Of a stretch of 64,000 nucleotides of DNA, positions 9,946 to 60,443 are shown piece by piece (positions within the stretch are counted from its first letter, which is position 1; each line of letters starts with the position of its first letter). Made by a program: the position numbers and the translations under genes. The notes beneath the pieces are model-generated. The model was given only the letters and a program-made list of their open reading frames with translations, was not told the origin of the DNA and ran no database searches. This DNA is from a virus: positions 64,001 to 128,000 of IMG/VR virus record IMGVR_UViG_3300033153_009093; one strand, given 5' to 3'.

Positions 9946-9968
9946 ATTTCTTTCCTTTATAAAAACTA

Positions 9969-12150: not shown

Positions 12151-12158
12151 ATTGTATT

Positions 12159-13118: not shown

Positions 13119-13138
13119 AACAATACCTATTAATTTAT

Positions 13139-13162: not shown

Positions 13163-13183
13163 AAATATACATGGTAATAATGA

Positions 13184-14128: not shown

Positions 14129-14140
14129 GGTAATATTTTC

Positions 14141-15319: not shown

Positions 15320-15325
15320 TATTAT

Positions 15326-15979: not shown

Positions 15980-15993
15980 ACCAAGGATGAACA

Positions 15994-18064: not shown

Positions 18065-18073
18065 TTTAAATCC

Positions 18074-24715: not shown

Positions 24716-24740
24716 ATATTTTTACCAAATTTTTTTATAT

Positions 24741-26393
24741 TTAATTAATTATTTTTTCAAAATATCCTCTGATAGACTATTCTGGCATTATTTCCGTTAA
24801 AATATTTGGAATTTGTAAATAATCTTTAACGGAATTTATATTATAATTATTCAATTCTTCCTAATTCTATGAAGGTTCTTGTAATTTATTATCCTAAGAA
24901 TAATCTTCTTTTAATAAATTTATTAAATTATCAGTATTTTTACAAAAAATATTCTATACTGAAGTATATCTTAGCTATAACATAGCCATTGAATTTGAAT
25001 AATATCCTTTTATAAATCCGGCATTTAAATGTAATGGTTGTAAATAATTTCCAAAAAAAGGAGCAAATATATCATAACCCTTTCCGGATTTTAAATTACT
25101 ATTTATATGAGTTAACTTGCCTAAATTATGTTTACTATTCGATGAAGGATTTAAAATTGTATCAATATTATTTATTTTATCATCGTAGTATTGATATTTA
25201 TCATTCAATGCAAAACTACTTTTTATTGTACATTCTGATTTTTTTACATCTGACATATATTCATTATATAAATTAAATATATATTCAGCAGTGTTAATAA
25301 TATTATCATATAATGAAACAGTATTTTCGTTATATAAATCATTATTAATATTAATATCTAACAAATCTTGTTGGTCTCGTTTTTTAACTTCTACTAATAT
25401 TTCAATAATATTATCAAAACTTATTTTATTTACTTCAATTTCATTTAATTCATTTATTGTAGTAGTATCAAATATATAATCATTAAACACTTCACCACTA
25501 CTAGCTCTTATTTTTTTTGAAAATTGATATACTGTATCATAATTAGAAAATTGTGAATGAAATAAATATCTATATGTTAATGCTATATAATTATTAAACG
25601 TAGAATCTTTTCTAAATAACGGCATCGCATTCCTGAATAATATATTATGCACATTATAATCTATAGATTTTATAGGAAAAGTATAAAATTTGATATTAGT
25701 ATACTGGCCCCTTTCTAGTAAACATCTAGGCAAACCTAAAGATAATAAATAATTACACATATATAAACTCCTAGATATATTATAATCCATTGGGTAACAT
25801 AGATTTTCTGTAAAAGCAAAACTGGTTATATTATATGCCACTTTAAATAATTCAAAATATTCAATATCAGTTATTTCTTTTTTCATCTTATCAAATAAAT
25901 ATAACGATCCTAAAAAAATAGGTATAGAATTAAATAACTATTTTTTTATTACATATTTCCTACTATATTCTTCAGGATCAGCTAAATTGATTTTTCTAAA
26001 ATAATAATCATAAGGGTTATCATATGGAAAATCAATACTTGTATATAAATCCGAATCGGTTTTTATTATAGCACGATGAAACGAATTCAAATTAGACCTA
26101 TATGTCACGCTCCTACTTTCTATATTTAATATAGACATGCATGTCATTACGCTTAAAAAAGATGGAGCAGGATTAGATATATTGGACATTAGTCCATATA
26201 ATGTACCAGTGGAAGAAAGTACTGCATTTGTCAATGCTGTACCCAATTTAGAATTTAATGAAGTTGTCAAATATCCATAATCAACCGTACTCTATCTTTC
26301 GGAAAGATAGTTATAATACATATAAATATTATCTTCTGTAGTAGAAAAATATGACTCTTCGTAATGGTGTGCATACAAAAATGTATCATCCAT
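24741..26393 (-). CDS. Hypothetical tail-region protein, 550 aa
   Basis: Fuses ORFs 25938 and 24975. 8 TAG, including EPS*N*EEL and MPE*SIRG. ATG 26393 overlaps the upstream gene's end. Confidence 0.7.
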
Positions 26394-29300
26394 TTTTAAA
26401 CCATTCTAAATCAGGAAAAGATAAATCGCAGCCCGCTGTTCCTTTATATACATCTGTTAATATATTAAGCGATTTGCCGTTTACAGAATCTCCCATATCT
26501 TCCTCTCTAATATTTCCAAAACTATCGGTTTTTTTATACGTAGGATTTTTAACATAATCTAACCGCTTTACTTCAGCTATTAAATATTCATTATCAAGAA
26601 CATCAATCAATTCTACTTTATATCTAATATCCTTTGTTATTGTATAATTTTCACCATTAAATGTATAGTAAATTATTAACGTTGTATAATATTCGCCTGT
26701 TTGATTCGGTACATTAAATCCTCTTATTAATATTTTTAAATTATTTTTATCATATTTATAATAAGTTTTATTTATTATTTTTTCATTATTAGATTTAATA
26801 TTATAAATTTCATTAGTATCTCCGAATATAATACAATAATCTGTATCATTAATAAAATTATCCGCTATTCTTATTTTATCTATAACTAAATACGATTGAG
26901 TCGCTTTAAATATTTGAACCGGCATTTCAAATATCATTTTATAATTTGAATCTGATACAATGGTTATAGGATTTTCATTATAATCTACCGTTTTAATTAT
27001 CAAAGGATTTTCTAATACTTTTCTTTGCATAGCACTATGCAATTTATATGGCGAATTTGGCAAATTATATTTAGTATTATCTATAACTAATTGTAATGTA
27101 TTCTATTTTAAATTTTCAAAAATTATAGATAAATAATTATCTTCAGTATTAAATTTTATAGTATTATCACCCTTAAAATAAAATTCATATCCATTATTAT
27201 CTACTAATGAACTGTTAATAGAAGCGGATATAATATTATCATAATGACCATCGCAAGATAATGAGATATAATGAGATATTTTTAAACCATTATTTAATTT
27301 CATTTTTATATTTGTCTTAAAGTACCCACTACTATTAAAAGTATTAGATAAAAAGTTTGTATTTGTCAAGATATCATTGACATCATCAAATAGCCAATTT
27401 TCCTAATTTATAGTATCTTCTATAGGAATATTACCTGTTTCATTAAATAACTTTAAATGAAATTTTAAAGCTTCATCCTACATACTATGATTAGATTCAT
27501 TTTCTTTAATAGACGGAAATATAAAACTATTAGTATATGTACCACTTAAATCATTATTATAAATTTCCAGTGTTCCAGTATCCATTAATTTTGAAACTTT
27601 TTCATAAGATATTTCTGGCAATATATATTTATGAGATTTCCCAACTAAACTTAAATTTTTTGTTAATGATTTTGATTTTGGTGAATTTTCAATAGCTAAT
27701 TCATCTACTAAATTTGATAATATTTCAATAGTATTGCTAGGTATATTTTTATCTTTTCCTACAAAACTATTAGCTATACTTATGGCTAAATTTTCGCCAT
27801 AATCTCTAAAAAATAAACTTAAAATAGTTACAGGGTCAACTATTTTAAAATTCAATAAAATTCCAAATGTTTTAAAATCTTCTAAATCAAAATCATTATT
27901 TAAAATATATGATAGCAGCGTTTCATTTTTTACAGAAATAATACCATTTAATGAAAAAGAGAATTGATCAATGTTAGTTTGTTTACCTATTAAATATAAA
28001 TAATTTTGGTCTGTATCGATCATATTATTAACTTCTGTAAGTGCTGTCTCATCAGATGGTGAATTTACAAAATTACTAATATCATCTATAATATATTTCG
28101 ATGATGATGGATGTATTAGAGGTATCTTTATATAAATAACATCACCAAATTGAGTAGTCTAATTTATTATATCTGTTAAATTTGATCTATCTATTACAAC
28201 TTTATATGTTTCATTTACGTAAAATAAATAATCAATATCAACTAATGCATTATTATTTTCAACTTGCAAAATTGAAGAATTTATAAAAGATATTTTACTT
28301 GATGAAAATGTCTTTTCTATTTTATATTTATCGTTTTGATTTGATTCGTCTATATAAAATTGATTTTGTTCAAAATCAATTTGTACAATTTTAGCTGTCT
28401 TATCTATAAAGTTCATTACAGCCCTCAAATAATCATCTAATGAAGGTATAGGCAATTCAACTGTATCAATTATCGATGTCACATCAGTTTCTAAATCATG
28501 TTCAATTAAATCATATATAGCTATTCCACTTTCATAACTATCACTATAATCGGTCGCATCTATATCTTCTGTTAAAGATAATATTTTAAATTCTAAAGGA
28601 GCAATATTATATTCTTTATAATCATTAATAATTGTCTTTGGTGTATTATTTTCTTTTAATGAAAATGCTATTTTTTTATTATTGAATGATGAATTAAATA
28701 ATAATAATGTTGATTTTGATTTTGTGGGTTTGTCAATATAATTAACTAAATCCTTCTTATTATTACTACCAGAAAATAAATCATAATAATTTGAAGTATG
28801 GCTATCTTGACTATCCTAAAAAGCATTCTTTGCTAATGATGACAGCTCTTCCTTAGTTTTTTCTACCGAAACTTTTTTATCTATAACAAAAACAGTATTT
28901 GCCGATTCTTTATAAAACATATATGGAACAAACTATTCCAATTTTATATTATGAGAATAACAACCTAATAGCAATGAAGCTATATTAAACCCAAAATATT
29001 TTGGTTTATTTTTTATATTTAAATTTAAAGTAGTTGTAATACAATTATTACATTTATATCTTATTAAATAATTAAAATAATCCAATACTTCATATTTTGA
29101 ATTAGACTAAATTACATTATTTAATTCATCTTCTGGATTTTCTAAATCTTCATAATCCAATGGAATAGCAACGTATAAATCATCTGTACAGTTAAATATA
29201 TCAAAATATAATTCTGATACTTTTACGGCTGTTGAATCTATTGTTGATAATTTTATTTCTAATTCTATATTATGTACTATTTCTTTTTGCTATGAATATT

Positions 29301-32300
29301 CTGGATAAATGTCATAATATTCAATATAATCTAATAATTTAGGTGAATAAGTTGTTGCTGATTCTATATACTCTCCTCTATTTTTTACGTTCATTAAAAT
29401 GGAGCTTTCTTTTGATGAACTAAAATCAGGGTTATAACCAATATAATTATTATAATTATTATATAATTCATAAGTTAAATCAACATCTATAGGTATAACA
29501 ATATTATTATTAACATTATTTGATATAATAAAATTCATATTTATTTTGTATTCTTTTAAAATATCATCAATAGTTGTATGATCCGCAATATCAGTTATTT
29601 TACCATCTAATAATAATGCACCTTTACTTTCATCATAATATTCAATGTTATATAAATTTGTATATTCAAAATCTTCTACTAAATCTGATAATTCATTTAA
29701 TGAAAAACTTGCATATATTCGTATATATTTATTTTGATTATCATTTACTATATAAGGTAATACATTATTTTGATTATCAAATTTATTATATATAGTGCTA
29801 TTTTTATCGATAACGCTTATATCATCAATATCATAAATTGTAGAATCTGTTAATTCATAAAACCCTGTATCAGTATTGCCTATATAATTATTAAAAAATA
29901 AGCATTTCTTATTATCTGGTACATAATTCTATATATCATCATCTATATCAAATAACGAAAGTGATATATTTTTAGAATATATAACTTGAGGTAATATATT
30001 ATCCAATTCTGTATTATAAACTCCTACATTTACATCTCTGATGACTTCATTTATAATATCACTATAAAATATTCCTATTAAAATTACAGCAGTCGTAGAT
30101 ATAAAATTATCAAAATTGGAATAAAATTTTATTGATAAATTATTAAAATATGTAAATGTATTATATTCCATATTTACATATAATTTCTATTCTAATTGAT
30201 CTACTATATGTTCATTGGATGTAATAAGATTTTCTATATTGTAAATTAAATCATTTCCGGAGGTAGTGAAGTCCTCCATTAATATTTCAAATTGTACATT
30301 ATAAATATTATATGTATCAATATTATATACTTTACAATATAAAACCATTTTTGAAATATCGCCATGAATATTGCCGCCATTTTTTATTTCTAATTCTTTA
30401 TAATATATAGGCTTATGTGTGATATCATAACCGGAGATTAAATTCATTGCTCCGTTGATATATGTTATTTTATCAACGGGGTTACTGTCATAAAATCTTA
30501 CATAATTTCTTATATATTTATTACTATTATGTAATTCTAATTTATTAACATGATAATCTATATTTTCTAAATCGTAAATATTTACAATATCATAACTTTC
30601 AGAATATGTATCATAAATCATATAAATATATTCCATACGATTCTTATTTATTAGCGTAAAATCATTAAAATTCCACTGGAAAGTATTAGAATTATATGCA
30701 TTATAAACAACTTTATCATATTCTGTAAGTTCATTATCGCCATTGACATAATTATTTATAATATCTTTATATTGAGTGATATTATAATCCGTAGAATCGC
30801 TAGTTATAGAATGATTTATTATTTCTAATCCTATATAATTATTAATATCATTAATAGAATTATATGAACATATGTTCATATTATTGGAATTTAATAACAT
30901 AGGAACCGGAAAAGGTAATAATTTTATTTTTCCAGAATTAACATTATTAATAAAAGTTGTATAGTTTGTACTATTTAAATAATTAGAATTGCTATTATCT
31001 ATATCTATTGCTAATCCGTAAATTTTAAATCTATCATTGTCTACAAAGTTATTCGTTATTAGAATATTATTTATATTATCCGTAGCGTGTAATTTATATT
31101 CAAAATCATTTAAATTATCATAGTCTGATACAAAATTTATTTCCTCCTTTGACATTATATCAGTATAAGGAGTTAAAGCTACTGAAGAATCTAATAACTC
31201 TTTTCCTAATATTTCACCATAATGATAATTGTCTGCATTAGTATAATCAGATTTACTATAAGTGTAAATTTCTTGATATCTTTTTTTATAATACGGATAG
31301 GATAATATTACATTATCATTCTCTATTAAATCATTATCTATTTCTGAAAGCCTTATAATAAAATTATTATTTATATCTGACCTAAAAAAAACATTATTGT
31401 CTAATAATCTAAACCCACTGACATTCAATAAATTAGCTGTTGTTACATCTATATATAATTCTTTAATTGAGCTTTCTGAATTTTCTATTTCATTTTTTAA
31501 ATTTAGGGCGTTTAATTTTGTAGTAATATCTATTAATTCTAAATATTCCCCTATATTTAGAATTATATCATCATTTATAATACCAGTTTCAGTTATTTCG
31601 ATATTAGAATCTATTAATTTAAATATAAACTCCAACCCATAATAGATATCATCACCTAAAACAATTTTGTAATTTTCTAAAGTATATTCATCAAATACAA
31701 TATCTTTGCCATACTGAGTTGAATGTATTTGATTTGTAGAATCATTATTTATTTCATCAGGTTCATAACTATAATTATAATTCATATAATAAATATCATT
31801 AAATGTGCCGCTATATTTTTTTAATTCACCGGCTATTATGGAGTATTCATTATTAATAGTAATGATATCATATTGAACTTCATCAATATCATTATTATTA
31901 TAGTAATTATAAATGTTTTCTATGCCTAAATATAAATGATGAGTAGATAAACTATTAGGAATACTATAATTATATATTAATTTATCGAAAGAATAATAAA
32001 TTTTATCTATTTCAGTAATATTATTTTCTAAAAAAGAAGGTGTGTCAATATTATATTTATCTATTTTCAATATATGAGTATCATTATTATATAAATTATA
32101 ATTATCAATGTCAGTATATTGTTCATCGAAGTGTCTTTCAATTGATAATAATGATAATGGTAAAATTTCATTACCAAATTTTTCATAATATATTGAATCA
32201 TTATAATCTGATGTATTATAATATTTGTATTCATTTAATGTATATACAGTATCGTAATATAAATCTAACTATATAGGATTGAACCCCGGTGGGTTTCCGT

Positions 32301-32664
32301 TTATATAATTAGAACCTTTCATTAATTGTTGTCCAAATATATAAATACCGCTGATAAAGGGTTTATCTATTCCGTAATTGTCCCCATATAATATATTATA
32401 TTCGAACTGTTTTAAAAATACCGTTAAATATTTTTCATATTTTGGCGACTAATAAAATATGGCAGTATATTTATTTTCTTTATCATTTGCAATATTATTA
32501 CAAATGAATTGAACTTTATCATTAATTAGTCCATAATAAAAATTATTATCCATTAATGTATTGCTAGTTAAAAATAACTGTTTAATATATTTATCTAAAT
32601 ATAAACTTTCATAGTTAGTCAAATAATTATAATAAATATCTTCCAATTTGTAAAAACTTTCCAT
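26386..32664 (-). CDS. Very large virion protein (baseplate-wedge-like?), 2092 aa
   Basis: Track ORFs 32449, 30187, 29929, 29290, 28159, 27478, 27103 and 26386 share one frame. 12 TAG and no TAA/TGA until TGA 26386. Confidence 0.75.
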
Positions 32665-32744
32665 AATGAAACCAATTATATTATATTGTTTTTTGAAATT
32701 AATTATACAATTACAATATTAAATATTTTTTATGGTATCAAAAT

Positions 32745-35700
32745 ATGCTTTTTAAAACTAATTTATATAATAGAAATTATTACCCTATAAAGATTTTTTC
32801 TATTAATGAAAATATTCTCAATGATGATAAATCTACTATTTCAAATGATTAGATTATAACCAGTTCTACTTTCAATAATGATGAAGGAAAATTAATTAAA
32901 CCTTTTCAAACCACATCATAGATAACATCTGTGTCATTAAATGAAAATGTAAATAATTTTAAAGGATATATATATTTAGATTCTACTATATACACAGATT
33001 CTATTGATTATGGTACATTTGGAATATTATCAGGTTAGGAAGCAAATATAAAACATCACTTTGTTACTTTAAAAACTGGTAAGATTTTCAATAATAAAAC
33101 AGGGGGTGTATTTACAAAAGATGACGCTGATAGTTTATCGGAAGAATCTAATATCTCTTTAAAATTTAGTATGAAAGATATATCAGATTAGAATGAGATA
33201 TTAAATCATTTAGAAATGTCAGGATTTAGTGGATATGATATAGAAGATTATGATTTTTTTGGAGATGGAATAAATTCATTAACTATCAACTCTCCGCCTG
33301 ATGACAACTGCACTAATCAATTTGTTAGAGGAAGTGTAATAAATGATTAGGACACATTAACTGAATTTATTGAAAATAATAATGGCACATTGAAATTATA
33401 TAAAGAAAATGACAATATATAGTTTGACATGGAGCTACCCGGAAGATTATTATCTGATATATTTACTTCACTAGATACAAGTTATAAAAACATGATAACT
33501 TCAGAAGATTATGAAAAAAGTTCTAACTCTTCTATTGATTTGCCTATGTTACAATGGTCTATAGGCATGACAGTTATTTTGCAGTTAAAAAATAAAAATA
33601 ATAATACTCCTTATAAAATAAATTTAAAAATTGTTACGCCTTTAATATTCCTTTTATTATTACCTGAAAATGATATAATTGAAGCAAATAAAAGTGATAT
33701 TAAACCATTGCTTAATTTAATTAATAATCCTTCTGATCTTGATAAAAATACATTATTAGTTATACCAACAAAAACAAAATTATTAACTAATCCTTCCAGT
33801 TATTATTCATCTAATATAAAAGTATCACCCTTATCATTAAATACTTTATCGTTTGATACTAATGTAAATAAAGATACTTTTTTTACTATTAATAATGTTC
33901 AATAGAAAGCATCAGATTATTATACTGATAATGACTTAATAACTTTTTCGTCCGAATCGTTTCCGATAAAAAGAATTATACCATCCAGTGCAAATAAATT
34001 GATAAATAATAATTTTGACATATTTATAGATACTACTGGAATAACAGAAAGTTATATCAATACTCTAATTATTAATTATTCTTATGATGGTACAACTTAT
34101 GATATTGAAACTGATATTGAAATAATTCCTACTCTAAATGAAAATGAACCAGAAATAATATATTTACCAAATTCTATACTTGTTGAAAATTCTCATAAAC
34201 ATAAAGTAATACAAAAAGATTTATATAGTAGCAAATTTATTGACTGTATTCATTTTTCAACATTAGGAGAGGATAAACTTAATTTTCAATTAAAAAATAT
34301 AGGCGAAGCGAATGCGATAATTGAAAATGTCGAAATAGAAAATGCCTATAAATAGTTAGACGATTTAGCTAATATAGAAAATAAAACATCTAAGGATTTA
34401 GAAAATATCGAATTACTTACAGAATGTACTAATCATCACATTAGTGCTATGAAATATGTGAATAATTCTTTAACTGATATAGAATTAGAAAATTTAATTG
34501 AAAGATCTTCTATTAAAAAATATATAAATTTTACATTATCAAACATTAATCAATCTTCATATAATGCATATGGGACATCTAATTTTAAAATATTTTTTAA
34601 TATAAATAGATTTAAAACGGATATAAATTATTTAAATGGTATACCTTTAATATTTAAAATAATTTATAGAAAAAAAGATTCACCAATTAAATATACTAAA
34701 TATATATTCAATAAATCTGCTTTTAATTTAAAATTTGTAGTCGGTAAAATGGAATTATTGTATAATAATGAAGTGGAAGATATAAAATATATTAGACCTT
34801 CATCAAGAAATACTTTATTTGTTGATTTATATAGAAATATTAAATTTGACAATATTTAGAATTCTATGAGTAAATTATTATCGACCGGAGTTTCTATAAA
34901 AGATTGTAAAATATTAAATATAAATAATATTAATAATATATCGACTAATGAATATTTTATAGATCGTTCACAATTTCCATTAAGTGTATCTTCATTAAAT
35001 AATATAAATATTAATACGTTATCATTTGATTTAAATTTACAGAATGAAAAATTTTATAAATTTAAATTAAGAATATATACATCTTATGAATATATTCCTT
35101 TCATTGATATCCCTTTAAATGTAATAGCAACAAATGTGGATGTTGAAAGTATAATAAAATTTGATTCTAATGATTTTTATGTAAAAAATAATAAATATTT
35201 TTTATCATTAATAAAATTACAAACAAAAAATAGAAAATTATCTATAGTTAATACTTCTAATATAGATATTATGATATTAGATATAGACATTTACACCATT
35301 TCTGATCATTTTGGAAATGATAATTTTGATATTACATTAAATAATAGTTTTAATTTTCCGTTCAAAATGACTAATAAGAATTCTTTAAAATTAGATATTG
35401 ATTTTATTGGTAAAGATTTTGGACACTATAACAACTTTATAATATTAAAAACAAATTTAGGAGATATATATTTAAGCATTTCTTCTTTCGTAAATACAAA
35501 GTATAAAGATGTATATGTATTAATGGAAAATAGAAAGGGTACAAAATTTACATCAACATTAACTGGCAGTGATGTAGATTATATTAAGTTAATAAACTTC
35601 GGAGATGATAAATGTTTTACTGAAATAACTAAATTAGGAGGATAGAATTTAAATAATTTTAAAATATCCGAAAATGCAAAACTATTACCGAATACTACCA

Positions 35701-36620
35701 ATTATATAGAAAATGTATTTACTCCTACATCAACGGGTAAAAAAATAAGTTAGGCTGATTTTAAATTAAATGATATGCTAGAAACTTATAAATTATTAAT
35801 AGACGAAGAGACTTACATAGCTAAATTACAAAATAGTCATATAATTGCTGAAATGATAGGAACCGCATTAAGTGAAACGGCAGTGCCAGTATTTAGTAAA
35901 AGTATTATAGATTTTGGATATATCTCTACTGATAATAAAAATAGATTAACTAGAGTAGATACCTTTGATATTGAAAATTATGGAATAACTCCTTTTTTAA
36001 TAACAAAGATATCAAATGTAAATTCTAAATCTCCTTTTAAAATATCTTTACTAAATGAAAGTTATCCTATAAAGGTAAATAAGAAAATATCAATTCCAAT
36101 ATATATTGATAATACTTTATTAGATGACAATAATAAAATATATTATGATATATTTAAATTTGAATTGCAAGATTTAAAAACAAAAAATGTTTTTAGTAAT
36201 GATATTATTGTTAAATTAGAACTTACTGAAGATGATAAAAAATATATATCATTAAATTCAGAACTAATAGAATTTGGATATTGTGAAATAAATAATTTTA
36301 AATCTGATTCCGTATCCATTAAAAATTTTTCAACAGATAAGTTATCATTAGATATATCTTATAGTGGCGATATAGAATTACAAACATTGAAAGAATTCGC
36401 TATCAATTTATAGCCTAATCAAACCTTCGATTTGCCTATTTATTTCTATCCTCATGGAATTGATAATTTTGAAGGTATAATACAATTAAAATTTGATGAC
36501 GATTATATTAAAAATATAAACCTTTTTGGGTATGGTGTAGATTTTCAGTTACCTTTGATAAAAATCGAAAATGAATTATTAAAGTATACTAACAATATTC
36601 AACAATATTTAAATAAATAA
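32745..36620 (+). CDS. Large virion protein with tandem Ig-like (ASH / choice-of-anchor-D-like) domains, 1291 aa
   Basis: Fuses ORFs 33429, 33999, 34449, 34866, 35775 and 36432; 12 TAG. Repeated motifs LKNIGEANAII, IVNTSNIDIMI, IENYGITPFLITKI, IKNFSTDKL...LPIYFYP...EGIIQLKF...INLFGYG. Confidence 0.7.
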
Positions 36621-36666
36621 TATTTTACGGAATCGGTTATTTATCGCCTATTCCGTAAAATATTAT
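36617..36666. terminator. Bidirectional hairpin between convergent genes
   Basis: 17-bp inverted repeat ATAATATTTTACGGAAT / ATTCCGTAAAATATTAT located at the convergent stops 36620 (+) and 36663 (-). Confidence 0.6.
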
Positions 36667-37061
36667 AATCCAAATTCCTATAATATTTTATATAAGTTCA
36701 AAGGTTTCTTAACAGGGTAGTATACATTATCAAAATATACCACTAAACTAGAAATGTTATTCAATATTTGCTCAGACACTTCATCATACTTAACATATAC
36801 CATTAATGAATATTCTGTTCCTAATTTAGTATCATTTTCTTGCACAAATAACTTATTATAAGTATATATACATTTCATGCTATCTATATGAATATAGTCG
36901 TCCTGTGATATTGTAGTCATATCAACTGCGCTGTCATCAAAGGGGTTATTGACATTATTATAATTTGGCAAACATAAATCGCACATCGGATTATCAATCA
37001 TATTTGCTATTAAGTCAAACGCTTTTGATTGTATTGCCACTTTTAATTTCGAATATTCCAT
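36663..37061 (-). CDS. Hypothetical protein, 132 aa
   Basis: Track ORF 36678..37061 plus one TAG (KIL*EFGL) to TAA 36663. Confidence 0.6.
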
Positions 37062-39664
37062 TATTCCACCATAACAACATCGTCTAAGGTAACATTAAAT
37101 ATATAATCACTGTTATATGATATATATGAATATTTTAAATTAATATCATATTCATATATATGATTATACTTTCTATAATTTATTAACATTTGGACATAAC
37201 CTTCAGATGATATTTGATAAATTGTTGAGTCGCTTAATAAATCTTTATTTAATATAACAGGATTATTATTATTAGTATTAAATGATAATTCATTTACAGA
37301 TAGATTAATAAATTTATTATCATCAATATTATATAAAGTAATTAAATCATTATAATTATTTATCGAATTTATAAAATAATCAGAAAATGTATAATCATTT
37401 TCATCTGAATATAAACTATAATATGCATACTAATCTATTCCTATTACTTTATTAAATATAATAAATTTATTATCTGTATCCATGATATCATCATATTTAA
37501 AAAATGTTACAAGAAATGTTCCGGTCGTATCTGTTATATTTACTTTGTAAATATCTTCCCCTATTAATACTGACATCACATCTTCATATTCCGCAACATC
37601 TGTATTATCCATATCATAAGATTTAATAATATTAACGTCTGTTAAAATAAAATCTTGTAAATTTTCATAATTAGTTGTATCTATAGTTAAAATATCTTTA
37701 ACATAAGAAAAGGTATAATCGATTACTATAGGATCTTTATATATTTCAGTTAACTGTAATTGTTTTATTTCATTATATAAATGATAAATCAAATCATAAT
37801 TCAATTTATCATTTATATAATATTTATTAGATAATAGATAATAGTAATCAAATGAAATTGTTTGAATATAATCGAAATATAAAAATTTATACTTATAAAA
37901 GCTTTCATCCAATACCGTATTATTTCTAATAAAATGATTATCTAAAATATCTAATGCATCATTTTCATTATCAATCGCTATAATAGATAGCATATTATGA
38001 GGTAATATATTTATATCATCATTTATTAGTATAACATTATCTATTCCATTAGTATGTATATAATAAGATAATGAGTATTCTTCGCTTTTTATAAAGTCGT
38101 TATAGATTACATTTGCAGTATCAAATGTTTTATTAAATTTATACAAGTTATCAAAATCCTAAGATAAATTATATATATAATTATGCAATTTATTATAGTC
38201 CTACTATTCATCCATATAATCATTTACTACAAAATCAATTTCATAATGATCTACATCCAAAGAATATGAGTAATATAATTCATCATTATTTATAGGTATC
38301 AGTCCACCTATAGCAACTTTATATTGTCGTAAATAAAATGTTTCGTAGTTTATATTATCAGACACATATAAAACTATCGGCAAATTTGTAGTAGTGTCAA
38401 ATCCTTGGATATCTATAAATTCCGCTGTCTCTATACTTCCAATATTTGAATCTACAAAATCACCATGAATATCCTAAAATTCTATTTGCTTTGTTAAATA
38501 ATTTCTATACTTTTTAATACTATTATAGCTACTTATAAATTCATCATAATCTTCATCTAATATAACTGTAGAATCATTATTGTAAGCTGTTTTTATATAG
38601 TTATATAAATAATTATTATATGATTTAAATTCTATATTGACTATCTCTTCTTGTTTATATAACTTTAATTGATTTGATGTTATCGAATTACTTGGTACCT
38701 AATCTGATAAAGTGCTTTCCTCAATATCATTAAATGTAAATTTTAAATCCTATCTAACAAATGGATGCGGATAATTATCCACATATTCACTATGTCCATT
38801 TTCTGTTACTTTTATACTATAAGGATATTTATCTGCGCTAGTTACAATATATGAATATTGCTCAAAACTAAATATTGCCGATGGAATGTAACTTTTAACA
38901 TCATTTAAAATATCATATAATGTATTTTTTAATTTATAATTATCTTGGCTTCCGTAAATATATACATACTTTTCATATCCATTAAAATTTATTTTAAAAG
39001 TAAATCCATTATAGATAACTTTATATGGTAAATAATTTGAATATATATATAATTCTTTGTATGATAACGAATTTTGCAATTGTTCAAATTCCGATTCATT
39101 TAATCCTTCAGTTTTTATTAATACTAAATCAGGATATTCTATATTTGATTTAGGATAATATACTGTTGTAGGTGTCTCTATTTTCTTTTCAACTATATTA
39201 AATAAATAATCATCAATGGGATCTATTTCTATTCTATTATACGAAATAGATTTTATCGATGATAAGTAACCGGAGTCCTTTTCATTCTTTATAATATTAT
39301 CTACAAATATACCCTTAGTATCAATATCATTTGAATAGGTCTAAATAAATTTTATATTATTAGGATACTTTATAGATGTTATTATAAATATTTCACAAGC
39401 ATTGAATTTTGATAATATCATCTAATGAATAAGCTATAATTTTTCTACATTAGATAAATTGGCATCAATTTTTACATCATCAATTTTATCATATAGCCCA
39501 TATACATATTTTATTATTGTTGAGCTTTTATTTTCTGAATACTTATGATATAGATATGTTGAAAAAATATAATCCATTTTTTCATTAACGGCATATTGTT
39601 GCATACCTATCGTATCGCTGAATATGTATTCTATATTTAGATTATTAGAATTAAATCCTAACAT
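37061..39664 (-). CDS. Hypothetical virion-region protein, 867 aa
   Basis: GAGGT RBS. Fuses ORFs 39434, 38750 and 37430; 10 TAG including a tandem TAG-TAG at 38201-38206. Its TAA overlaps the next ATG. Confidence 0.7.
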
Positions 39665-40281
39665 TATATAGACCTCTATAAAAATTTACTTAATTCTAAA
39701 TTATTTATATCATTAGATATAAATAATTTTATATCACTATCGACTATTTTATTCTTTATTACATTATCTTTAAAAATATAAGCTATTTTATTATTAGATA
39801 AATTGTAAATTGTAGGAAATATATATACCAATTCGTTATCAACTGATAATAATATTATAGAAGAAAAGTTATTTATATCATTATCAGAATCTATGGTAAG
39901 AATTAACATATTATTAATATAACTAATATTCTTTAATTCAATAATTTGAGTATATGTATTATATAATATAGATGAATAATTTATCCAGTACCTATAAATA
40001 TCACTGTATTCATCATTACCATCATTGTATGATACAGTTAAATCAATATAATCCTTATTTATAGAATTGCCTATATTAATAATTTTAATATACCCTTTCA
40101 AGTTATAAGAAGTGTCCTTTACAATTGTAAAAGGTGTGTTTATATATTCTATATTTAGATTATCCGTTGACGTAATATCGTCAATTTGGAGGTCTGCGGT
40201 TCCTTGATTAATAATATCAAATCCGAAATTTTTTAATGTATATAATTCTTTTATACCAAGTTCAACACTGTATTCATTCAT
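39664..40281 (-). CDS. Ig-like-domain protein, 205 aa
   Basis: FDIINQGTADLQIDDI...PFTIVKDTSYNL motif. Reading through TAG 39676 gives a TAA that overlaps the next ATG (TAATG). Confidence 0.55.
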
Positions 40282-40292
40282 ATCAATTCCTA

Positions 40293-40802
40293 TTAAATAT
40301 TTGTAACATTAGAAAAATTCGTTAATAGATTATCTTGATCTTTTGTATCATTTAAATATTCAAAAAAATTATCTAATTCAATATATCTATTAACTGAAAC
40401 CAAATAATTTAAATCTAATGATAGCATATTAGGAATGATATAGTTTGTATCATCAAATTTTTTTATCTACACTGCTATTAATGTTTTAGTGGATGAAGGT
40501 TCATTCTATTTATAAGCACTATCGGTATTGATAGTAATATTATTAATAGGTTTATAATTTAAATTGTACTCTTCTATATTTAATGATTCTGATAAATTAG
40601 TAACTATTTGATTAAATATATATACATTATTATTTTCAATAAAATTTGAAATATTTATTTCATTAATAATTAAATCATTCTATAAAGTATTAATATATGC
40701 CAAATCTTTTTCTTCGGTATATCTAATGATATATAAATCAAATAACATAAACATCTAAGTAGATAAGCATAATTTAAAATTATCATTCGTGTACTATTTC
40801 AT
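40293..40802 (-). CDS. Hypothetical protein, 169 aa (absent from the ORF track)
   Basis: ATG 40802 to TAA 40293 with 5 TAG (MK*YT, LST*MFML, LIAV*IKK). Confidence 0.6.
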
Positions 40803-40806
40803 AATA

Positions 40807-42069
40807 TTACCCATTCACTAACATTACAGGGATTGTTAAAGTTTCACCTGATTTAGCTATATCAAAAATTAAATCATTAAAATAATTAGCATTGCTACTT
40901 AAAAATGAAAGATTATATAAATTATCTATATTTTTTAATGTACTCTATGGAATATTCTTCCTATCTTGTAATATTCTTCCTATTGAATTTGTTTCAATTG
41001 CTATCGGCATAGAATTTTTAAATCCATCAGAATATTCTTTATATTTCTTTATCTAATAATATCTGGATGAATATTTCGTTTCAATTAGATTTTTAGGTTT
41101 AGCTCCATTATATAAATGAAACAATCCATCATGTTCTAATTGTATTTTATTAAAAATAATATCAAAAAACTTTTTAGTAAATTCAAAAGGTATATATCTA
41201 TAAATGCCATTATTTTTATTTAAAAAAATTCCAACAGTAAATAGTGACTGAACAATAAAATAATTATCATTCAAATTTTCAATATCTGATTTAATAGTTG
41301 TCTAATTAGAATTGTATATAGAATTTAAACTGATATCTATAATACCGCTACTTGTTATTGATGTTAAATATTTATTATTATAATATAATTTAATATTATC
41401 TACGTCATCAGTGGTAGTATAAATAAAAAAATGAACAGGATAATAAACACCATTTAAATAAAATAAATAAAAATTGCTATGGTAAACTTTATGAATATTT
41501 GATTTTATTATTATGGTAGGATTGAAAATTGTTCTGATGTTATCTTCATCATCGATATAATATTTTCCAACTAATTCTTTTATCGAATGAATATTCCCTG
41601 ATAATGTTATTAGTTTTTCTACATTTTCTATTTCATAAAAAGGATAATATTCATTAGAATGAATATTATCATTTTTTAATGTATTATATCGTTTATAATA
41701 ATTATCATTATTAATAATAGAATACTATTCATCTAAAGTTAAATTATCATTATATAATGATAATTTTATTGCTTCATTTGCAGCATCTATTGCAATATTA
41801 TCTGTTTGAGTAGCGGATTTTATAAATCGATCTTTATAAAAATTTTCCTAAGATTCTGATAAATCTCCTGTATAAGAAAATAAATCTATAGGATTTTTAT
41901 TATACATTACATTATACAATGGCATATCGGATTCAAGATATATTAAATTACCAGAATTGATATTTTGTAAATTGAATTTATAGCTCTATAATGTTGGATG
42001 ATTTGATACGGCTTTTATATTATAATTTGATAATATATGCTGCACTTTATCGTAAGAAGAATATAACAA
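40807..42069 (-). CDS. Hypothetical protein, 420 aa
   Basis: TTG 42069 after AGGT. 6 TAG (SES*ENFY, LDE*YSII, IP*STL); ends TAA 40807. Contains track ORF 41053. Confidence 0.65.
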
Positions 42070-42091: not shown

Positions 42092-43402
42092 TTAAACATT
42101 TTCAAATATACAATCATCAAATTCGTTTTTTAGTATATTAATTTTAATTTTAATACTTTTAATAAATACATTATTGAAATATTTACTATTATCAATTAAA
42201 TCATATACAATGGCATCTTTTTTATTATCACTTTTTCGTACAATCCGCCCTATTGTTTGAATAAGAGATTTTCTTCCCATTATAGGAGTTGCCAATATTA
42301 ATCGATTTAAAGCGGCATAATCAAAGGCATGCGAAGCATATTTATAAGTTGCTACAATTACGTTATCATTTATTTTATCAATATCATTTTTTTCAGAAAA
42401 TAATTTAGCAGAAGTTATATTTTTTTCTTTTAAATAATCATACACAAAATTAAGTTGTTTTTTTGTTAAACAAATAATTATTATTTTATTATTTTGTTCT
42501 ATTTCTTTTTTTGTGATATTATAAATATTAGATATCCATTCTTTAGATTCATGTAATTTTGAATTATATATCGATCTTGCTTGAATAAAATTTCTATTCC
42601 ATAAATACGAAATCCTTTTACCGTACTTTTCACCTAACCCACTATCGAATTTTATAAACTTTACAGTAGGTTGATAATCATATGAGCCATAAGTAACTAA
42701 TATATCATCGAATATAGATTTAACTAAAATATTTTTTTCTTTATCAAGATAAGGCGTAGCAGATAATCCTATTACATTTTTAGTGTTGAATAACAATGAA
42801 GCTGATGCATATTTAGTACCCATCTTATGCGCCTCATCCCAAAATATTAGATCGATTCCTATTGATCTAAATAATGGATAAAATTCTTTTATATTATTTT
42901 TTACTTTTGAAGCTAATGTCTGAGGTGTTGTGATGATAACTTTTTTATTTTCGACATCAAAAATTTTTCCTTTTATTAATCCAATTTCAGAATCTGTAAT
43001 ATTTGTATGTCGTAAAAATTCTTCTCTCCATTGTTCGACAATTTTTTCAGTATCAATAAGAATTAATGTTTTTTTATTTAAATAATGTGCTAAATATATT
43101 GAACAAACAGTCTTACCAAATCCAGGCCTTGCGTGCAATATACCATTTATACATCCAGTAGTAGTATAAACATTCAATAAATTATCAATTATACTTATTT
43201 GTTCCTTTCTTAATTTAGAAACAAATTTATATTTTAATATTTCTTCAGCTTTAAATTTTTTATCACTATAAGTTAAAATATCTTTATTATGTGCATATTT
43301 TAATATATTTCTAGGAAGGTATATATAATCATCTGTAGAATGTAAAGTATAAGGTTCATACTTTTCAATAAACGGACTATCTTTATTCAATAAACAAAAC
43401 AT
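42092..43402 (-). CDS. Superfamily 2 DNA helicase (UvsW-like)
   Basis: Walker A ARPGFGKT, DEAH, GLSATP, QTIGRIVR. 4 TGG, 0 TAG. Confidence 0.9.
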   Translation of the reverse strand: MFCLLNKDSPFIEKYEPYTLHSTDDYIYLPRNILKYAHNKDILTYSDKKFKAEEILKYKFVSKLRKEQISIIDNLLNVYTTTGCINGILHARPGFGKTVCSIYLAHYLNKKTLILIDTEKIVEQWREEFLRHTNITDSEIGLIKGKIFDVENKKVIITTPQTLASKVKNNIKEFYPLFRSIGIDLIFWDEAHKMGTKYASASLLFNTKNVIGLSATPYLDKEKNILVKSIFDDILVTYGSYDYQPTVKFIKFDSGLGEKYGKRISYLWNRNFIQARSIYNSKLHESKEWISNIYNITKKEIEQNNKIIIICLTKKQLNFVYDYLKEKNITSAKLFSEKNDIDKINDNVIVATYKYASHAFDYAALNRLILATPIMGRKSLIQTIGRIVRKSDNKKDAIVYDLIDNSKYFNNVFIKSIKIKINILKNEFDDCIFENV

Positions 43403-43622: not shown

Positions 43623-44666
43623 TTAATTATATAATTTTGATATACTATAATCAATAAACGTTGTTGAATCGTTAATATTAATTACATCATTAATAATTCT
43701 ACTTTTACTATATAATTCTAATGCTATATTTTTCAATTCTCTATTATATTTGTTCTTTAAATATATTATTAATTTATATAATCCTATAGAAAAACTAATA
43801 AAATCAAATTTTTTAATTGAGATTAAAAAATAACTATTTATAAAATTATAATCCGTCAATTTCATAGAATTTATTTCTTCAACAAAGAATGTATCAAATA
43901 TTTTGCCATTTATCATTTGATAATTAGTAAAATATTTAATTATTAAATTTTTTATAATATTATCAAATAGTAATATCGTAATATATTTCGCTTCTTCCAA
44001 TTTATTTAATTTTATTAATATATATGCCGCTATTAATATATTACTATAACTAAAATAATTAAAAGGGTATATTATTTGAATATCATTTAAATATTCTTTA
44101 AATTTTTTACTTTTATAATAAGAATAACTATTTAACATTATAGAAAATAATATTTCCGAATTATAATATATTTTTAAATCTTTTTTTAATTCAATAGTAA
44201 TATTTTTTAAATCTGTATCTATTTTTGTTATAAGGCTGTTTACATTTGAATCTTTTTTTAATTCACAACCTAACACCCTTTCATTTGTTTTTGTATATTT
44301 TATTTTTTTTGGGGTTTTATATTTCGATATCAAAATTTCATAAGGATAATAATATTTATTAAAATCAGGAATAATTGAATTTTCATCTTTTATCATTTCT
44401 GGGGCTGGTTTCCCTACAATAAACTTATTCTTATTATAAAAAATATTACAATTTTGCAAACTAACCTTTAATTTACTATCCCTTTTTAATAAAGTATCAA
44501 CATATATAAATTTATTTTTTCTTTTTAATAAATAAGAATTTATTTTTAAACTATCAAAGATTTTTTCTTTTATAATATTATAATCAATTTCTGATTCATC
44601 TAATAATTCTTTTAATAATAATGTTGTTACATAATTTATAACATAATCTTTATTTATTTTTTCCAT
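43623..44666 (-). CDS. Hypothetical protein, 347 aa (true start probably ATG 44666)
   Basis: Long ORF ending TAA. The track's start at 44747 lies inside the tRNA. Confidence 0.6.
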   Translation of the reverse strand: MEKINKDYVINYVTTLLLKELLDESEIDYNIIKEKIFDSLKINSYLLKRKNKFIYVDTLLKRDSKLKVSLQNCNIFYNKNKFIVGKPAPEMIKDENSIIPDFNKYYYPYEILISKYKTPKKIKYTKTNERVLGCELKKDSNVNSLITKIDTDLKNITIELKKDLKIYYNSEILFSIMLNSYSYYKSKKFKEYLNDIQIIYPFNYFSYSNILIAAYILIKLNKLEEAKYITILLFDNIIKNLIIKYFTNYQMINGKIFDTFFVEEINSMKLTDYNFINSYFLISIKKFDFISFSIGLYKLIIYLKNKYNRELKNIALELYSKSRIINDVININDSTTFIDYSISKLYN

Positions 44667-44713: not shown

Positions 44714-44787
44714 TGGACTCGGTTAAGAGAATCGAACTCCTATACACAGATTTAGAGTCTGTTATCTTGCCATTAGATCAAACCGAG
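44714..44787 (-). tRNA. Amber-decoding tRNA, anticodon CUA, 74 nt with encoded CCA
   Basis: CTCGGTT-TG-ATCT AATGGCA AGAT-A-ACAGA CT CTA AA TCTGT-GTAT-AGGAG TTCGATT CTCTT-AACCGAG-T-CCA. All four stems pair; anticodon at 44753-44755. Confidence 0.95.
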
Positions 44788-44810: not shown

Positions 44811-44839
44811 TCTATATCATTTTTTATTTTAATATACAA
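44811..44839 (-). promoter_or_regulatory. Possible sigma70-type promoter upstream of the tRNA
   Basis: TTGTAT-N17-TATAGA with a TG extended -10, 23 nt upstream of the tRNA. Weak evidence given the AT richness. Confidence 0.25.
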
Positions 44840-45379
44840 TTATGCATATTGCCAAGTTAATTTTAATTTTTTGTCACTAGGATGTTTCCCGGCAGATTCT
44901 CTTTTTCCTCTACAACATTCGGAAATGTGTTGATGTCTTGTATTTGCATGATTACCAGCTTTTCTTAATGAAAGAAACATAGAATTTAATTCAGGACAAT
45001 AGACTTTTTTTCTAGGTTTATTATGTAATCCATTTTCAAAAGCATGATCGCTATTTTCTTGATTAGTCATCCATTCCAAATCTTTCCAATAGTTATTTAA
45101 CTTATTACCATACTTATGATTTACTTGTGGTTTATTTTTAAAATTATCAACGAAATGAATAGCAACTAATCTATGAATAACATACGACTTCCCTTTTCCA
45201 TTATTACTAAACCATACATTAGCATATTTATTTCTAAAAGATGTTTTTAAAATAACACCTTCGGGGTATCTATGAAAACTTTTAACATTTCCCCATGATG
45301 ATATTTGATACAACCCTTCGTATCCTTTTACATCCTTCCACGTTTCAGACTCTCTATTTTTTATTTTTGTATCTGGCAT
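44840..45379 (-). CDS. NUMOD4-HNH homing endonuclease
   Basis: ETWKDVKGYEGLYQISSWGNVKS (NUMOD4) and IHRLVAIHF...VNHKYGNKLNN..DLEWMTNQEN (HNH). 6 TGG, 0 TAG. Confidence 0.9.
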   Translation of the reverse strand: MPDTKIKNRESETWKDVKGYEGLYQISSWGNVKSFHRYPEGVILKTSFRNKYANVWFSNNGKGKSYVIHRLVAIHFVDNFKNKPQVNHKYGNKLNNYWKDLEWMTNQENSDHAFENGLHNKPRKKVYCPELNSMFLSLRKAGNHANTRHQHISECCRGKRESAGKHPSDKKLKLTWQYA

Positions 45380-45411: not shown

Positions 45412-46929
45412 TTAAAATAGCGAAACATTTTGTGATACTTGATTATTAGATTTTGTTTTCTTTTCAAATTGACCTAACATTCCGCCCCCTTCTTCGGCAC
45501 TACACTTTTCAAATCTTGCAAAATTAGGACGATATCTACAATTTATTATAGTACCATCTTCATGATATCTATGTTTTTCATTATATAATACGACCATATT
45601 ATATCCTAAATCTTTATAAGTATCTTTTACCTGCATTGTAATAACGATATCGGCATTTTCATATTTTGACCAACCGCCTCCAATGTCCGTACCACTTGGC
45701 ATTTCGTCATCGCTTTTACTTTTTCTTGCGCCTTCTCTATTAAACTGCGATACAGTTAACCCGCAAGTGTCATATTTTTTTGAAACAGCTTTGAAATCAT
45801 CTACAATATTCCCTACAACTTCATCACTTCTCAATGTTTTTCTATTATCAATAGGTAACATTTTATCTACATAGTCAAGCATAATAGAATATACAATAGA
45901 ATCTTTAAACTTTAATAGAGTTCTATCAATGCATGCTTCTATAGCTAACATATTATGACGTTTAGGTGGCAATTCAACTACGACTAATATAGTATTTTTA
46001 TCCTTTTGTTTTAAATATAATTTTATGATTTCTTTTCTTTTCTGATCATCCAATATATCATACTTTAATTTATTAATATCTATATCAGTTATATTTGAGA
46101 TAATCCGTAAAAAAGTTTCTGTTTTAGAATTTTCAAAAGTAAAATAGAAAACAATATTTTTTTTATTACCAGTTTTTTTAGACCGTAAGTGTTCTGCCGT
46201 TGAATGGCACAGAAACATTGATTTCCCGGCCCCGGAAGCCCCGATTAATATACCTATTCGTTTCTTCTCTATAAATCGAATTTCGCTTAATATTGAAACT
46301 TCTCGACACTCTTCTTGAACTACAGCCGATTCTTGTAAAGCTTCATCAATATCATCGATATCATTTTCTAAAACAAAATCGTCATTTATTAAAGAATCAT
46401 CATATGTCAAAAATATTTTTGATAATCTTTGTTCGTATTCTATTGTTGGGTCTTCTATTGTATAAAATTTATTATATAAATCATATAAATCAATAATAGA
46501 TTTATGAAGAGATAAAAATTTAATAACTTTATCAAATTCTATATTTATTGAACTATTATTAAATCTATTTGAATCTTTATTATTAACAATGTAATTTATA
46601 AATTTTTGTACTTTATTAAATGTATTATTATCTATTGTGTTTTCTATTTTATTTATAATACTTTGTTTTATAGAAACAATATCAGCATTTATACTTATTG
46701 TTTTTGATTCTATAATTAAAGATAATATTTTTATGAAGGCAGGATTATCCGTTTCATATACTAATGATAGTGATTTATAGGACTGTTGTTTTGTAGTAAA
46801 AAAATAATTTAAGAAACTATTTATATTTAATAATGATGCGTCTTTAAAATTAGTAATGTCATATCTTAATAAACCTATACATAATAAAGATATATACTCA
46901 GGTGTTAAATATTTTTTATCTATAATCAT
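45412..46929 (-). CDS. DnaB/gp41-like replicative helicase
   Basis: GASGAGKS, YFTFEN, MLDYVD, TVSQFNR motifs. Confidence 0.85.
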   Translation of the reverse strand: MIIDKKYLTPEYISLLCIGLLRYDITNFKDASLLNINSFLNYFFTTKQQSYKSLSLVYETDNPAFIKILSLIIESKTISINADIVSIKQSIINKIENTIDNNTFNKVQKFINYIVNNKDSNRFNNSSINIEFDKVIKFLSLHKSIIDLYDLYNKFYTIEDPTIEYEQRLSKIFLTYDDSLINDDFVLENDIDDIDEALQESAVVQEECREVSILSEIRFIEKKRIGILIGASGAGKSMFLCHSTAEHLRSKKTGNKKNIVFYFTFENSKTETFLRIISNITDIDINKLKYDILDDQKRKEIIKLYLKQKDKNTILVVVELPPKRHNMLAIEACIDRTLLKFKDSIVYSIMLDYVDKMLPIDNRKTLRSDEVVGNIVDDFKAVSKKYDTCGLTVSQFNREGARKSKSDDEMPSGTDIGGGWSKYENADIVITMQVKDTYKDLGYNMVVLYNEKHRYHEDGTIINCRYRPNFARFEKCSAEEGGGMLGQFEKKTKSNNQVSQNVSLF

Positions 46930-59961: not shown

Positions 59962-59992
59962 ACCGGAGAAGATTTTCTTCTCCGGTTTTTTT
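59962..59992 (+). terminator. Intrinsic terminator, probably bidirectional
   Basis: ACCGGAGAAGA-TTT-TCTTCTCCGGT 11-bp stem followed by a T-run, between convergent genes. Confidence 0.85.
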
Positions 59993-60443
59993 ATAGATAC
60001 TTTTCAATTTTTTTATTAGTACTTTCATGTAAAATCATATCACTTTTATTTTTATTAAAATATGATTTTGGTGTGCCTTCAAATTTTCTCGACATTCCCC
60101 TCTAATCGGCAATCATTTGAAGTATGTATTTTTTTGGCATTTCAATAGGAATTATTTCATTTTTCCTTGTTACAGATACCTAGTAATTCTAATGATGTTT
60201 ATTTCTTTTTTGATGTTTATTCTACCCTTGTTGAAATAATTTATCGTTTCCATCAGATTTACAATAATTATTTAAGCTATCTTTCTTTTCAAAAAAGATA
60301 GCAGATGGTATAAATTCGGATGGTAAAAATTTTGATAAGTCATGAGTAATTGCATGATAATATAGTCCCATGTTGATACATTCTATTCCTACATTCTTTT
60401 TATGCTCAATAATATATTTAAAATATTTCTAATATTTATTCAT
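59991..60443 (-). CDS. DUF5662-like (HD-type) protein, 150 aa (absent from the ORF track)
   Basis: MNKY*KYFKYIIEHK, AITHDLSKFLPSEF, QQG*NKHQKRNKHH*NY*V, IPIEMPKKYILQMIAD*RGMS. TAG at 60429, 60222, 60189, 60180 and 60102; no TGG. Confidence 0.85.

Follow-up and report, generated by a model that had tools for sequence, protein, structure and literature searches.

The tRNA(CUA) and its locus

Here we analyzed a window of 64,000 nucleotides, the whole stretch of DNA presented above, which is taken from a 180,374-bp virus record (bases 64001-128000). The record is rated complete, has a GC content of 24%, and contains a 114-bp perfect inverted terminal repeat. ARAGORN placed a single tRNA with the anticodon CTA in the window (44714-44787, minus strand), and whole-genome tRNA scans indicated that this tRNA(CUA) is the sole tRNA of the entire genome. 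The 74-nt sequence matches Rfam RF00005 over the full model (1-71) with 59.4 bits against a cut-off of 29 (E 2.6e-10), and it contains the conserved U8, A14, G18G19, and T-loop of the tRNA family, as read from the sequence.

The acceptor stem, 5'-CUCGGUU / AACCGAG-3', begins with a C1:G72 pair in both the sequence and the ARAGORN drawing, and it is followed by the discriminator U73 and a genomically encoded CCA. A D-stem of AUCU/AGAU holds the 7-nt D-loop AAUGGCA, a 5-bp anticodon stem carries the loop CU-CUA-AA, and the 4-nt variable loop (GUAU) leads into the T-loop UUCGAUU; the minimum-free-energy fold gives the same cloverleaf. An initial annotation of this DNA, made from its letters alone, had listed the complete cloverleaf with its anticodon loop and encoded CCA, the 74-nt build with these D-, variable, and T-loops, and the C1:G72 and U73 acceptor end, and each of these structural details was correct when compared with ARAGORN, Rfam, and the sequence itself. 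It did not state the strand, which is minus. ARAGORN labels the molecule tRNA-Pyl, as it does any CUA tRNA. tRNA-Pyl has an atypical architecture, and we rejected this label on the basis of the canonical 7-nt D-loop with GG, the 5-bp anticodon stem, the UUCGAUU T-loop, and the TAG columns of conserved proteins, which correspond to Trp (see below) and not to the Lys-like residues expected for Pyl. A consensus scan also picked out a candidate sigma-70-like promoter (TTGGCA-18-TAAAAT; 44826..44855, minus strand) 38 nt upstream of the tRNA 5' end. Evidence for this putative promoter is weak only, as the scan returned 29 sites around the tRNA against 21.5 expected in shuffles, an excess without significance in DNA this rich in AT.

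Directly upstream of the tRNA is a NUMOD4/HNH homing-endonuclease gene (44840..45379, minus strand; Pfam PF07463, E 1.4e-12, and PF13392) with 0 TAG and 6 TGG codons. Beyond it, a TAG-free DnaB-like helicase (45412..46929, minus strand; PF03796, E 2.5e-16) marks the upstream edge of a tRNA locus that is conserved in related phages, with orthologues of 57% identity in G001 and 43% in G002. Directly downstream is a 347-aa ORF (43623..44666, minus strand) of no known family, which contains neither TGG nor TAG and is kept beside the tRNA in G001 (35% identity) and, by synteny, in the closest relative. We considered a tRNA-modifying enzyme for this ORF and rejected it, as no family was found in Pfam, PHROGs, or Atlas. 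A TAG-free SNF2/ResIII helicase (42092..43402, minus strand; PF04851, E 2.7e-22), with an orthologue of 65% identity in G001, is the last standard-code gene before the TAG-rich block of late/virion genes (423..42069, no strand assigned). In this block Trp is mostly written TAG, as indicated by the ORF lists and codon counts, and genes of 2213, 2092, and 1291 aa are open only with TAG as sense. The presence of tRNA(CUA) is more than chance: it is the only tRNA, its anticodon fits the stop codon that interrupts the late genes, and a CUA tRNA is kept in the relatives tested.

TAG as a sense codon for tryptophan

With TAG read as sense, the longest ORF grows from 822 to 2215 aa; the same treatment of TGA has no effect. 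Gene calls made with TAG as sense gave 196 genes that cover 91% of the genome and end in TAA (163) or TGA (33). TAG positions are evenly spread along the genes, and no more than about five genes could end on TAG. We found no special base after the sense TAGs: the base that follows is like the one after any sense codon (p 0.85), and after real stops T or A predominates. In this phage, TAG is a sense codon.

The premise of the initial annotation, that TAG encodes Trp, is borne out by codon counts and by the conserved columns of two proteins, the DUF5662 protein and the terminase. The 64 TAG-bearing genes contain 1.11% TAG and 0.17% TGG, and the 132 TAG-free genes contain 0.87% TGG. Within the late genes, about 87% of Trp codons are TAG. 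The DUF5662 gene (59991..60443, minus strand) has 5 in-frame TAGs and was aligned with its family with TAG masked as X. All five of the TAGs (5/5) fall on Trp columns, with W in 91, 117, 120, 120, and 119 of 120 homologues. Columns conserved as Gln in the family carry Gln in this gene, written CAA or CAG and not TAG, while columns conserved as Tyr carry Tyr with one Ser exception. The DUF5662 columns are the cleanest proof that TAG is Trp.

For the terminase, the search was made with TAG written as Q, i.e. biased against Trp. The TAGs at residues 134, 276, and 286 align with columns that contain W in 108/140, 127/142, and 114/140 sequences, respectively, and these three are the only columns in the family with at least 70% W. 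At the fourth TAG column, W is the commonest residue. The same columns in G001 and G002 are TAG or TGG. Tyr-conserved columns contain Tyr in this phage with one Phe, and they are always Tyr in G001 and G002. Two other comparisons were set aside. A pairwise alignment of the terminase with T4 gp17 is too distant for reading single columns, and the terminase is no more than 27% identical to those of cultured T4-like phages. The HNH/DUF723 gene has its 4 TAGs in variable columns and gave no answer about the meaning of the codon.

In orthologue alignments across the three genomes, the positions opposite TAG are TAG, Tyr, Trp, and Phe, which is the same spectrum as that found opposite TGG. On the strength of these counts and alignments, TAG is read as Trp, and not as Gln or Tyr; the latter two readings are weighed further below. 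The share of Trp codons written as TAG is about 87% at 24% GC versus about 67-69% at 26-30% GC. Only three genomes are available for this comparison, and AT pressure could be the reason that TGG gives way to TAG wherever the latter is permitted.

A divergent phage TrpRS

The initial annotation had inferred that host TrpRS may fail to charge this tRNA and had raised the possibility of a dedicated phage synthetase outside the window. This inference is supported, as a gene of this kind is present on the minus strand at 134073-135023 of the genome (L002:6073-7023), 6,073 bases past the window end. It lies 25 kb from the tRNA and shares no operon with it. The gene encodes 316 aa, matches PF00579 (E 2e-23), and contains neither TAG nor TGG. 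It belongs to a clade of 15 proteins with 39-68% identity, most of them from contigs 23-276 kb long. Trp is entirely absent from 13 of the 15. A wide gap separates the clade from ordinary TyrRS (E about 1e-5), and a search of 50,697 GenBank phages returned no match to the phage protein.

Invariant features of the clade include HIGH, YP(V/I)LQxFD, DQ, KMSKS, and four Cys, with residues H15/G17/H18, Y138-P139, Q142, D145, and K200-S204 all unchanged. The Asp that aligns with Asp136 of Thermotoga maritima TrpRS (TmTrpRS), which binds the indole N, is also invariant. A profile of the clade matched TmTrpRS (PDB 2g36) with 88.8 bits and all four Fe-S Cys aligned; the 12 matches that followed were all TrpRS, and the best TyrRS reached 28 bits. 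An AF2 model of the enzyme had a pLDDT of 86 and a pTM of 0.88, and only TrpRS appeared among the top 50 PDB matches listed for it. The enzyme thus meets the criteria for a class Ic TrpRS, with HIGH and KMSKS motifs, a Rossmann fold, and an indole-binding Asp in the YPxLQxxD motif. It does not reach the NCBIfam TrpRS equivalog NF008922, at 32 bits where 572 are required, and it scores slightly higher with the NCBIfam tyrS model than with the TrpRS models (40 bits; cut-off 114). The phage enzyme is a very divergent bacterial-type TrpRS, with its Trp specificity inferred from the profile, the predicted fold, and the motifs.

TmTrpRS is the best match in both sequence and fold, and HIGH, KMSKS, and the indole-binding Asp are kept, although the two proteins are only about 19% identical and TmTrpRS is a cellular enzyme that charges tRNA-Trp. 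The TrpRS subfamily with a [4Fe-4S] cluster is defined by C-x(21-24)-C-x6-C-x2-C in the anticodon-binding domain, where TmTrpRS has C-x22-C-x6-C-x2-C. The four invariant Cys of the clade align with C236, C259, C266, and C269 of TmTrpRS; their spacing is C-x22-C-x4-C-x2-C in this phage, with the middle interval ranging from x4 to x6 across the clade. By alignment, the phage TrpRS appears to carry the four-Cys [4Fe-4S] motif of Thermotoga TrpRS, and there are no cluster-binding data. In TmTrpRS these Cys bind a [4Fe-4S] cluster, which a published model places next to C34 of the CCA anticodon (PMC2954223).

The flanks of 33 more distant phage TrpRS/TyrRS-like genes contained no suppressor tRNA. 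One member of the clade (39% identity) is on L093 (JAOZRH010000017.1), a 21.8-kb contig of 29% GC in a MAG labelled Candidatus Neomarinimicrobiota. The same bin has a contig with a large tRNA array, and no CUA tRNA was found in the 26 tRNA loci of the bin that were scanned. These are probably phage contigs that were binned with a bacterium.

Conservation of the locus in related phages

The tRNA region is readable in four genomes of the clade: this phage (G000), its closest relative, G001, and G002. The closest relative is a 166.6-kb JGI contig with a TrpRS of 68% identity. G001 (276 kb) and G002 (233 kb) are complete IMG/VR phages with a TrpRS of the same clade, and reading TAG as sense lifts their coding coverage from 0.70-0.72 to 0.88-0.89. 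TrpRS and tRNA(CUA) co-occur in 4/4 genomes, with the tRNA between the same DnaB-like and SNF2 helicase genes. In viral contigs, searches with the DnaB-like helicase found no related loci, and those with the SNF2 helicase recovered G001 alone; in metagenome contigs, the SNF2 helicase had no relatives beyond those of 27-28% identity. The SNF2 orthologue of G002 (98828-101716, plus strand) is 962 aa long, and its match to the 436-aa protein of this phage is broken into two parts by about 300 residues, a pattern suggestive of an inserted intein, homing element, or the like.

The acceptor ends of the four tRNAs are alike, and their bodies are not. Compared with the 74-nt tRNA of this phage (CUCGGUU/AACCGAG, U73, no long arm), the tRNA of the closest relative (L152:14600-14690) is 91 nt with the stem CCUCCCA/UGGGAGG, C73, and a long extra arm; that of G001 (112953-113043) is also 91 nt, with CCUCCUG/CGGGAGG, U73, and a long arm; and that of G002 is 76 nt, with CUCCCUG/CAGGGAG, U73, and no long arm. 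CCA is encoded in every case. C1:G72, a pyrimidine at 73, and CCA are constant, while pairs 2-7 vary with compensation. The tRNA(CUA) of G001 is an ARAGORN call with no Rfam match, and we accepted it because of its synteny and the arm that it has in common with the closest relative. These two long arms have an identical 6-nt loop, UUAAUU, and their 4-bp stems (AAGA/UCUU versus GGGU/ACCC) differ with full compensation. The arm was considered as a copy of the Trp anticodon hairpin, an idea that we rejected, as the loop UUAAUU lacks CCA and the tRNA of this phage is armless. As the discriminator of the closest relative is C and 2/4 tRNAs have a long extra arm, the identity set is not sharply defined.

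In the tRNA-Gln(UUG) genes that G001 and G002 also carry, the acceptor end consists of A1:U72 with G73. The CUA tRNAs of the same phages differ from this, which indicates that the CUA tRNAs are not Gln-derived. G001 contains 22 tRNAs and no credible tRNA-Trp(CCA); a candidate from a relaxed ARAGORN run had a weak structure, was absent from the Infernal list, and was discarded.

G001 and G002 each encode RF2 close to the tRNA, at 111431-112543 (L083:11431-12543:+) and 92519-93649 (L070:12519-13649:+), respectively. These genes lie 0.4 and 1.1 kb upstream of tRNA(CUA), score 357 and 371 bits against prfB, and contain the SPF and GGQ motifs. In this phage and the closest relative, a NUMOD4/HNH endonuclease occupies the place of RF2; the DnaB-SNF2 interval of the closest relative yielded no RF2 call, and a search of the genome of this phage found no release-factor gene and no known RF1 antagonist. 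The initial annotation had proposed looking through the rest of the genome for a TrpRS-like synthetase and RF2. The former turned up, and the latter did not in this phage.

Charging of tRNA(CUA) and alternative explanations

The major identity elements for Trp are the discriminator, the 1:72 pair, and the anticodon, with G73 in bacteria (PMC9976931), and all three are changed in tRNA(CUA). In place of the G73 of canonical bacterial tRNA-Trp there is U73 in this phage, G001, and G002, and C73 in the closest relative. The A1:U72 pair of E. coli and B. subtilis is replaced by C1:G72 in 4/4 clade tRNAs, and the anticodon is CUA instead of CCA. tRNA(CUA) works like a tRNA-Trp, since TAG is Trp, yet it is not a member of the canonical tRNA-Trp. 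A likeness to short bacterial tRNA-Trp had been noted previously, and it can be seen in one bacterial example from a MAG, which has A1:U72 and G73 together with the same CU-NNN-AA anticodon loop and a similar D-loop. The background on which the initial annotation relied, namely the identity elements for Trp and the mischarging of an amber suppressor with Gln, agrees with the literature: in E. coli, an amber suppressor made from tRNA-Trp receives Gln (reviewed in PMC9976931). U35 is a GlnRS determinant.

We think it likely that tRNA(CUA) is a phage amber-decoding tRNA that inserts Trp at UAG and is charged by the phage TrpRS, though no expression, charging, or proteomic data stand behind this. 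At the start of infection, the host would read TAG as a stop, and the TAG-free early and replication genes would be translated. tRNA(CUA), which lies among TAG-free genes, would be transcribed early, and the TAG-free, Trp-free TrpRS would be made. Both tRNA(CUA) and TrpRS are inside TAG-free gene blocks, so the host code can express both first. The split between TAG-free and TAG-bearing genes is seen directly in the gene calls, and the timing of expression is inferred. TrpRS would then charge tRNA(CUA) with Trp via a changed identity set consisting of C1:G72, a pyrimidine at 73, and U35; that this enzyme performs the charging is again an inference. The late genes, with about 87% of their Trp codons as TAG, would become translatable at this point.

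The identity elements are changed alike across the clade, which fits a co-evolved pair that also avoids GlnRS, but this is inferred and has not been shown. The odds are, in our judgment, even that the Fe-S-type TrpRS and tRNA(CUA) are naturally specific for each other, with an undescribed Trp identity set that bacterial TrpRS and GlnRS ignore, and orthogonality to the host likewise remains an inference. Several caveats apply, including the distance of 25 kb between TrpRS and the tRNA, the scores below the NCBIfam cut-offs, and the frequency of Tyr opposite TAG. At this time, it is unexplained how host RF1 is outcompeted at UAG, with this phage having neither RF2 nor a known RF1 antagonist.

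The strongest alternative retains Trp at UAG and assigns the charging to host TrpRS, with the phage TrpRS as a general auxiliary that boosts the supply of Trp-tRNA, a role proposed for other phage synthetases, and not as a dedicated partner. The separation of the two genes would be consistent with this, as would a tRNA body like that of short bacterial tRNA-Trp, including the example with the same anticodon loop and similar D-loop, and a dependence on host synthetases has been proposed for many recoded phages (Borges et al., 10.1101/2021.08.26.457843). However, a host TrpRS would need to accept a tRNA in which all three classes of major Trp identity element (73, 1:72, and U35) are changed, when in E. 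coli the tRNA-Trp amber suppressor receives Gln (PMC9976931). The TrpRS clade and the odd acceptor end also co-occur in 4/4 genomes examined, and the lack of a match in 50,697 GenBank phages indicates that this TrpRS is not a common auxiliary gene. Host charging is thus unlikely, but it should be kept in mind.

A second alternative, UAG as Tyr, would require a supF-like derivative of tRNA-Tyr, with C1:G72 as in archaeal tRNA-Tyr, and a short class Ic TyrRS. In the orthologue alignments, Tyr is indeed the commonest ordinary residue opposite TAG (150 versus 126 for W), and a BLOSUM likelihood places W first and Y second by a margin of only 6.3 log units. The choice of W over Y is settled because of the family-column tests, in which the DUF5662 and terminase TAGs fall on invariant Trp columns and Tyr-conserved columns carry Tyr codons in all three genomes, one Ser and one Phe aside. 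The slight lead of the tyrS model over the NCBIfam TrpRS models is countered by the clade profile and fold, which match TrpRS, and by an Fe-S motif that is TrpRS-specific. The long variable arm in the tRNAs of two relatives could also be taken as a sign of Tyr, but the discriminator is not A73, and TGG is depleted only where TAG is used. We give this reading very little credence.

An ordinary code-15 phage, in which UAG is Gln and the suppressor tRNA is charged by host GlnRS, would agree with the usual meaning of TAG in recoded phages and with U35 as a GlnRS determinant (PMC9976931), but this reading was dropped and is virtually ruled out by the codon counts, under which late proteins would keep only 0.17% Trp, by the DUF5662 alignment, where Gln-conserved columns carry CAA/CAG, by the orthologue alignments of the three genomes, where Gln is opposite TAG in only 5 of about 650 aligned positions, by the failure of the test for a Gln-type amber suppressor (TAG does not align with Gln in conserved proteins), and by a tRNA(CUA) with neither a weak 1:72 pair nor G73.

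Comparison with known recoding systems

The only phage reassignments that Borges et al. (preprint) observed were TAG to Gln and TGA to Trp, and published surveys of recoded phages suggest that this limit comes from the host synthetases available for hijacking (10.1101/2021.08.26.457843). The same study describes Jade phages that carry a module of TrpRS, tRNA(UCA), and RF1 (10.1101/2021.08.26.457843), and Seki et al. (preprint, PMC12636597) showed that the UGA-reading phage pair AP1, whose tRNA has G73, is orthogonal in E. coli. Our full-text literature search found no published report of TAG to Trp in a phage.

The Jade modules and the AP1/HF2 TrpRS:tRNA-Trp(UCA) pairs resemble the system here in that a phage TrpRS and a stop-reading tRNA are both encoded in the standard code, and in the proposed switch from stop to Trp for late or lysis genes. 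The Jade modules use UGA, the anticodon UCA, and RF1, whereas this phage uses UAG, the anticodon CUA, and no release factor, with RF2 in its relatives G001 and G002. The AP1 and HF2 tRNAs have G73 or A73 in contrast to the U73 and C1:G72 here. The Jade genes form one operon, while the TrpRS of this phage is 25 kb from its tRNA and, unlike those of Jade, AP1, and HF2, is of the four-Cys Fe-S type. The test for a Jade-type code-change module is not met, as there is no single operon and no release factor, with all parts in the standard code.

Code-15 phages, including crAss-like phages, Lak phages, and others, likewise recode TAG, restrict it to late genes, and use a suppressor tRNA, and some of them encode RF2. 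They read TAG as Gln, whereas this phage reads it as Trp, its tRNA lacks Gln identity features, and a putatively dedicated synthetase is present. TAG is also Trp in NCBI genetic code 32, that of Balanophoraceae plastids, which to our knowledge is the only NCBI table with this reading. The Balanophoraceae plastid genome is extremely AT-rich, as is the phage genome at 24% GC. In these plastids the change is genome-wide with no stage-specific switch and no relation to phages, and we know of no dedicated TrpRS in them. E. coli su+7, a tRNA-Trp with a CUA anticodon, has a tRNA-Trp-like body with C35 changed to U, as seen here. Its acceptor end is still that of the host, and it receives Gln (PMC9976931), whereas the phage tRNA has another 1:72 pair and discriminator and its codon is Trp.

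Judged from these comparisons, the phage would have a code-change kit of a known type with a new pairing of codon and amino acid and a new tRNA identity signature. If this clade does read TAG as Trp with its own TrpRS and a tRNA changed in all three main identity elements, the reassignments open to phages extend beyond TAG to Gln and TGA to Trp, and phages can bring along a whole decoding pair. If the pair is also mutually specific, a clade of jumbo phages installs UAG as Trp in the infected cell with its own parts. The pair would also be a natural test of rewired anticodon and acceptor recognition by TrpRS, possibly through the Fe-S domain beside the anticodon. It could additionally serve as a ready-made, amber-suppressing orthogonal TrpRS/tRNA pair for code expansion that complements the UGA-reading AP1. 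Annotation of genomes of this kind goes badly wrong under code 11, and under code 15 as well.

Additional features of the genome

The phage contains a full-length tmRNA outside the window, at 171981-172339 of the genome on the minus strand (L092:1501-1859). It matches Rfam RF00023 with 100.7 bits (E 2.3e-41), and ARAGORN predicts the tag peptide ADDYAIAMAA. In G001 the tmRNA match is merely weak and sub-threshold, and G002 lacks one. With late genes full of host stop codons, a ribosome-rescue RNA could be relevant to the code switch.

Two genes of mobile-element type in the window also use TAG. A DUF723/HNH-type endonuclease (52207-53103, minus strand; phrog_559, E 2.7e-73) contains three tandem Zn-ribbon-like repeats, and with 4 TAGs and 1 TGG it is a mobile-element gene that writes TAG as well. 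The other is a TnpB/Cas12f-like gene (58520-59851, plus strand) with a PF07282 TNB domain match below the cut-off (E 5.4e-5). It has 5 in-frame TAGs and no TGG, and this transposon-type gene appears to have adopted the late-gene code of the phage.
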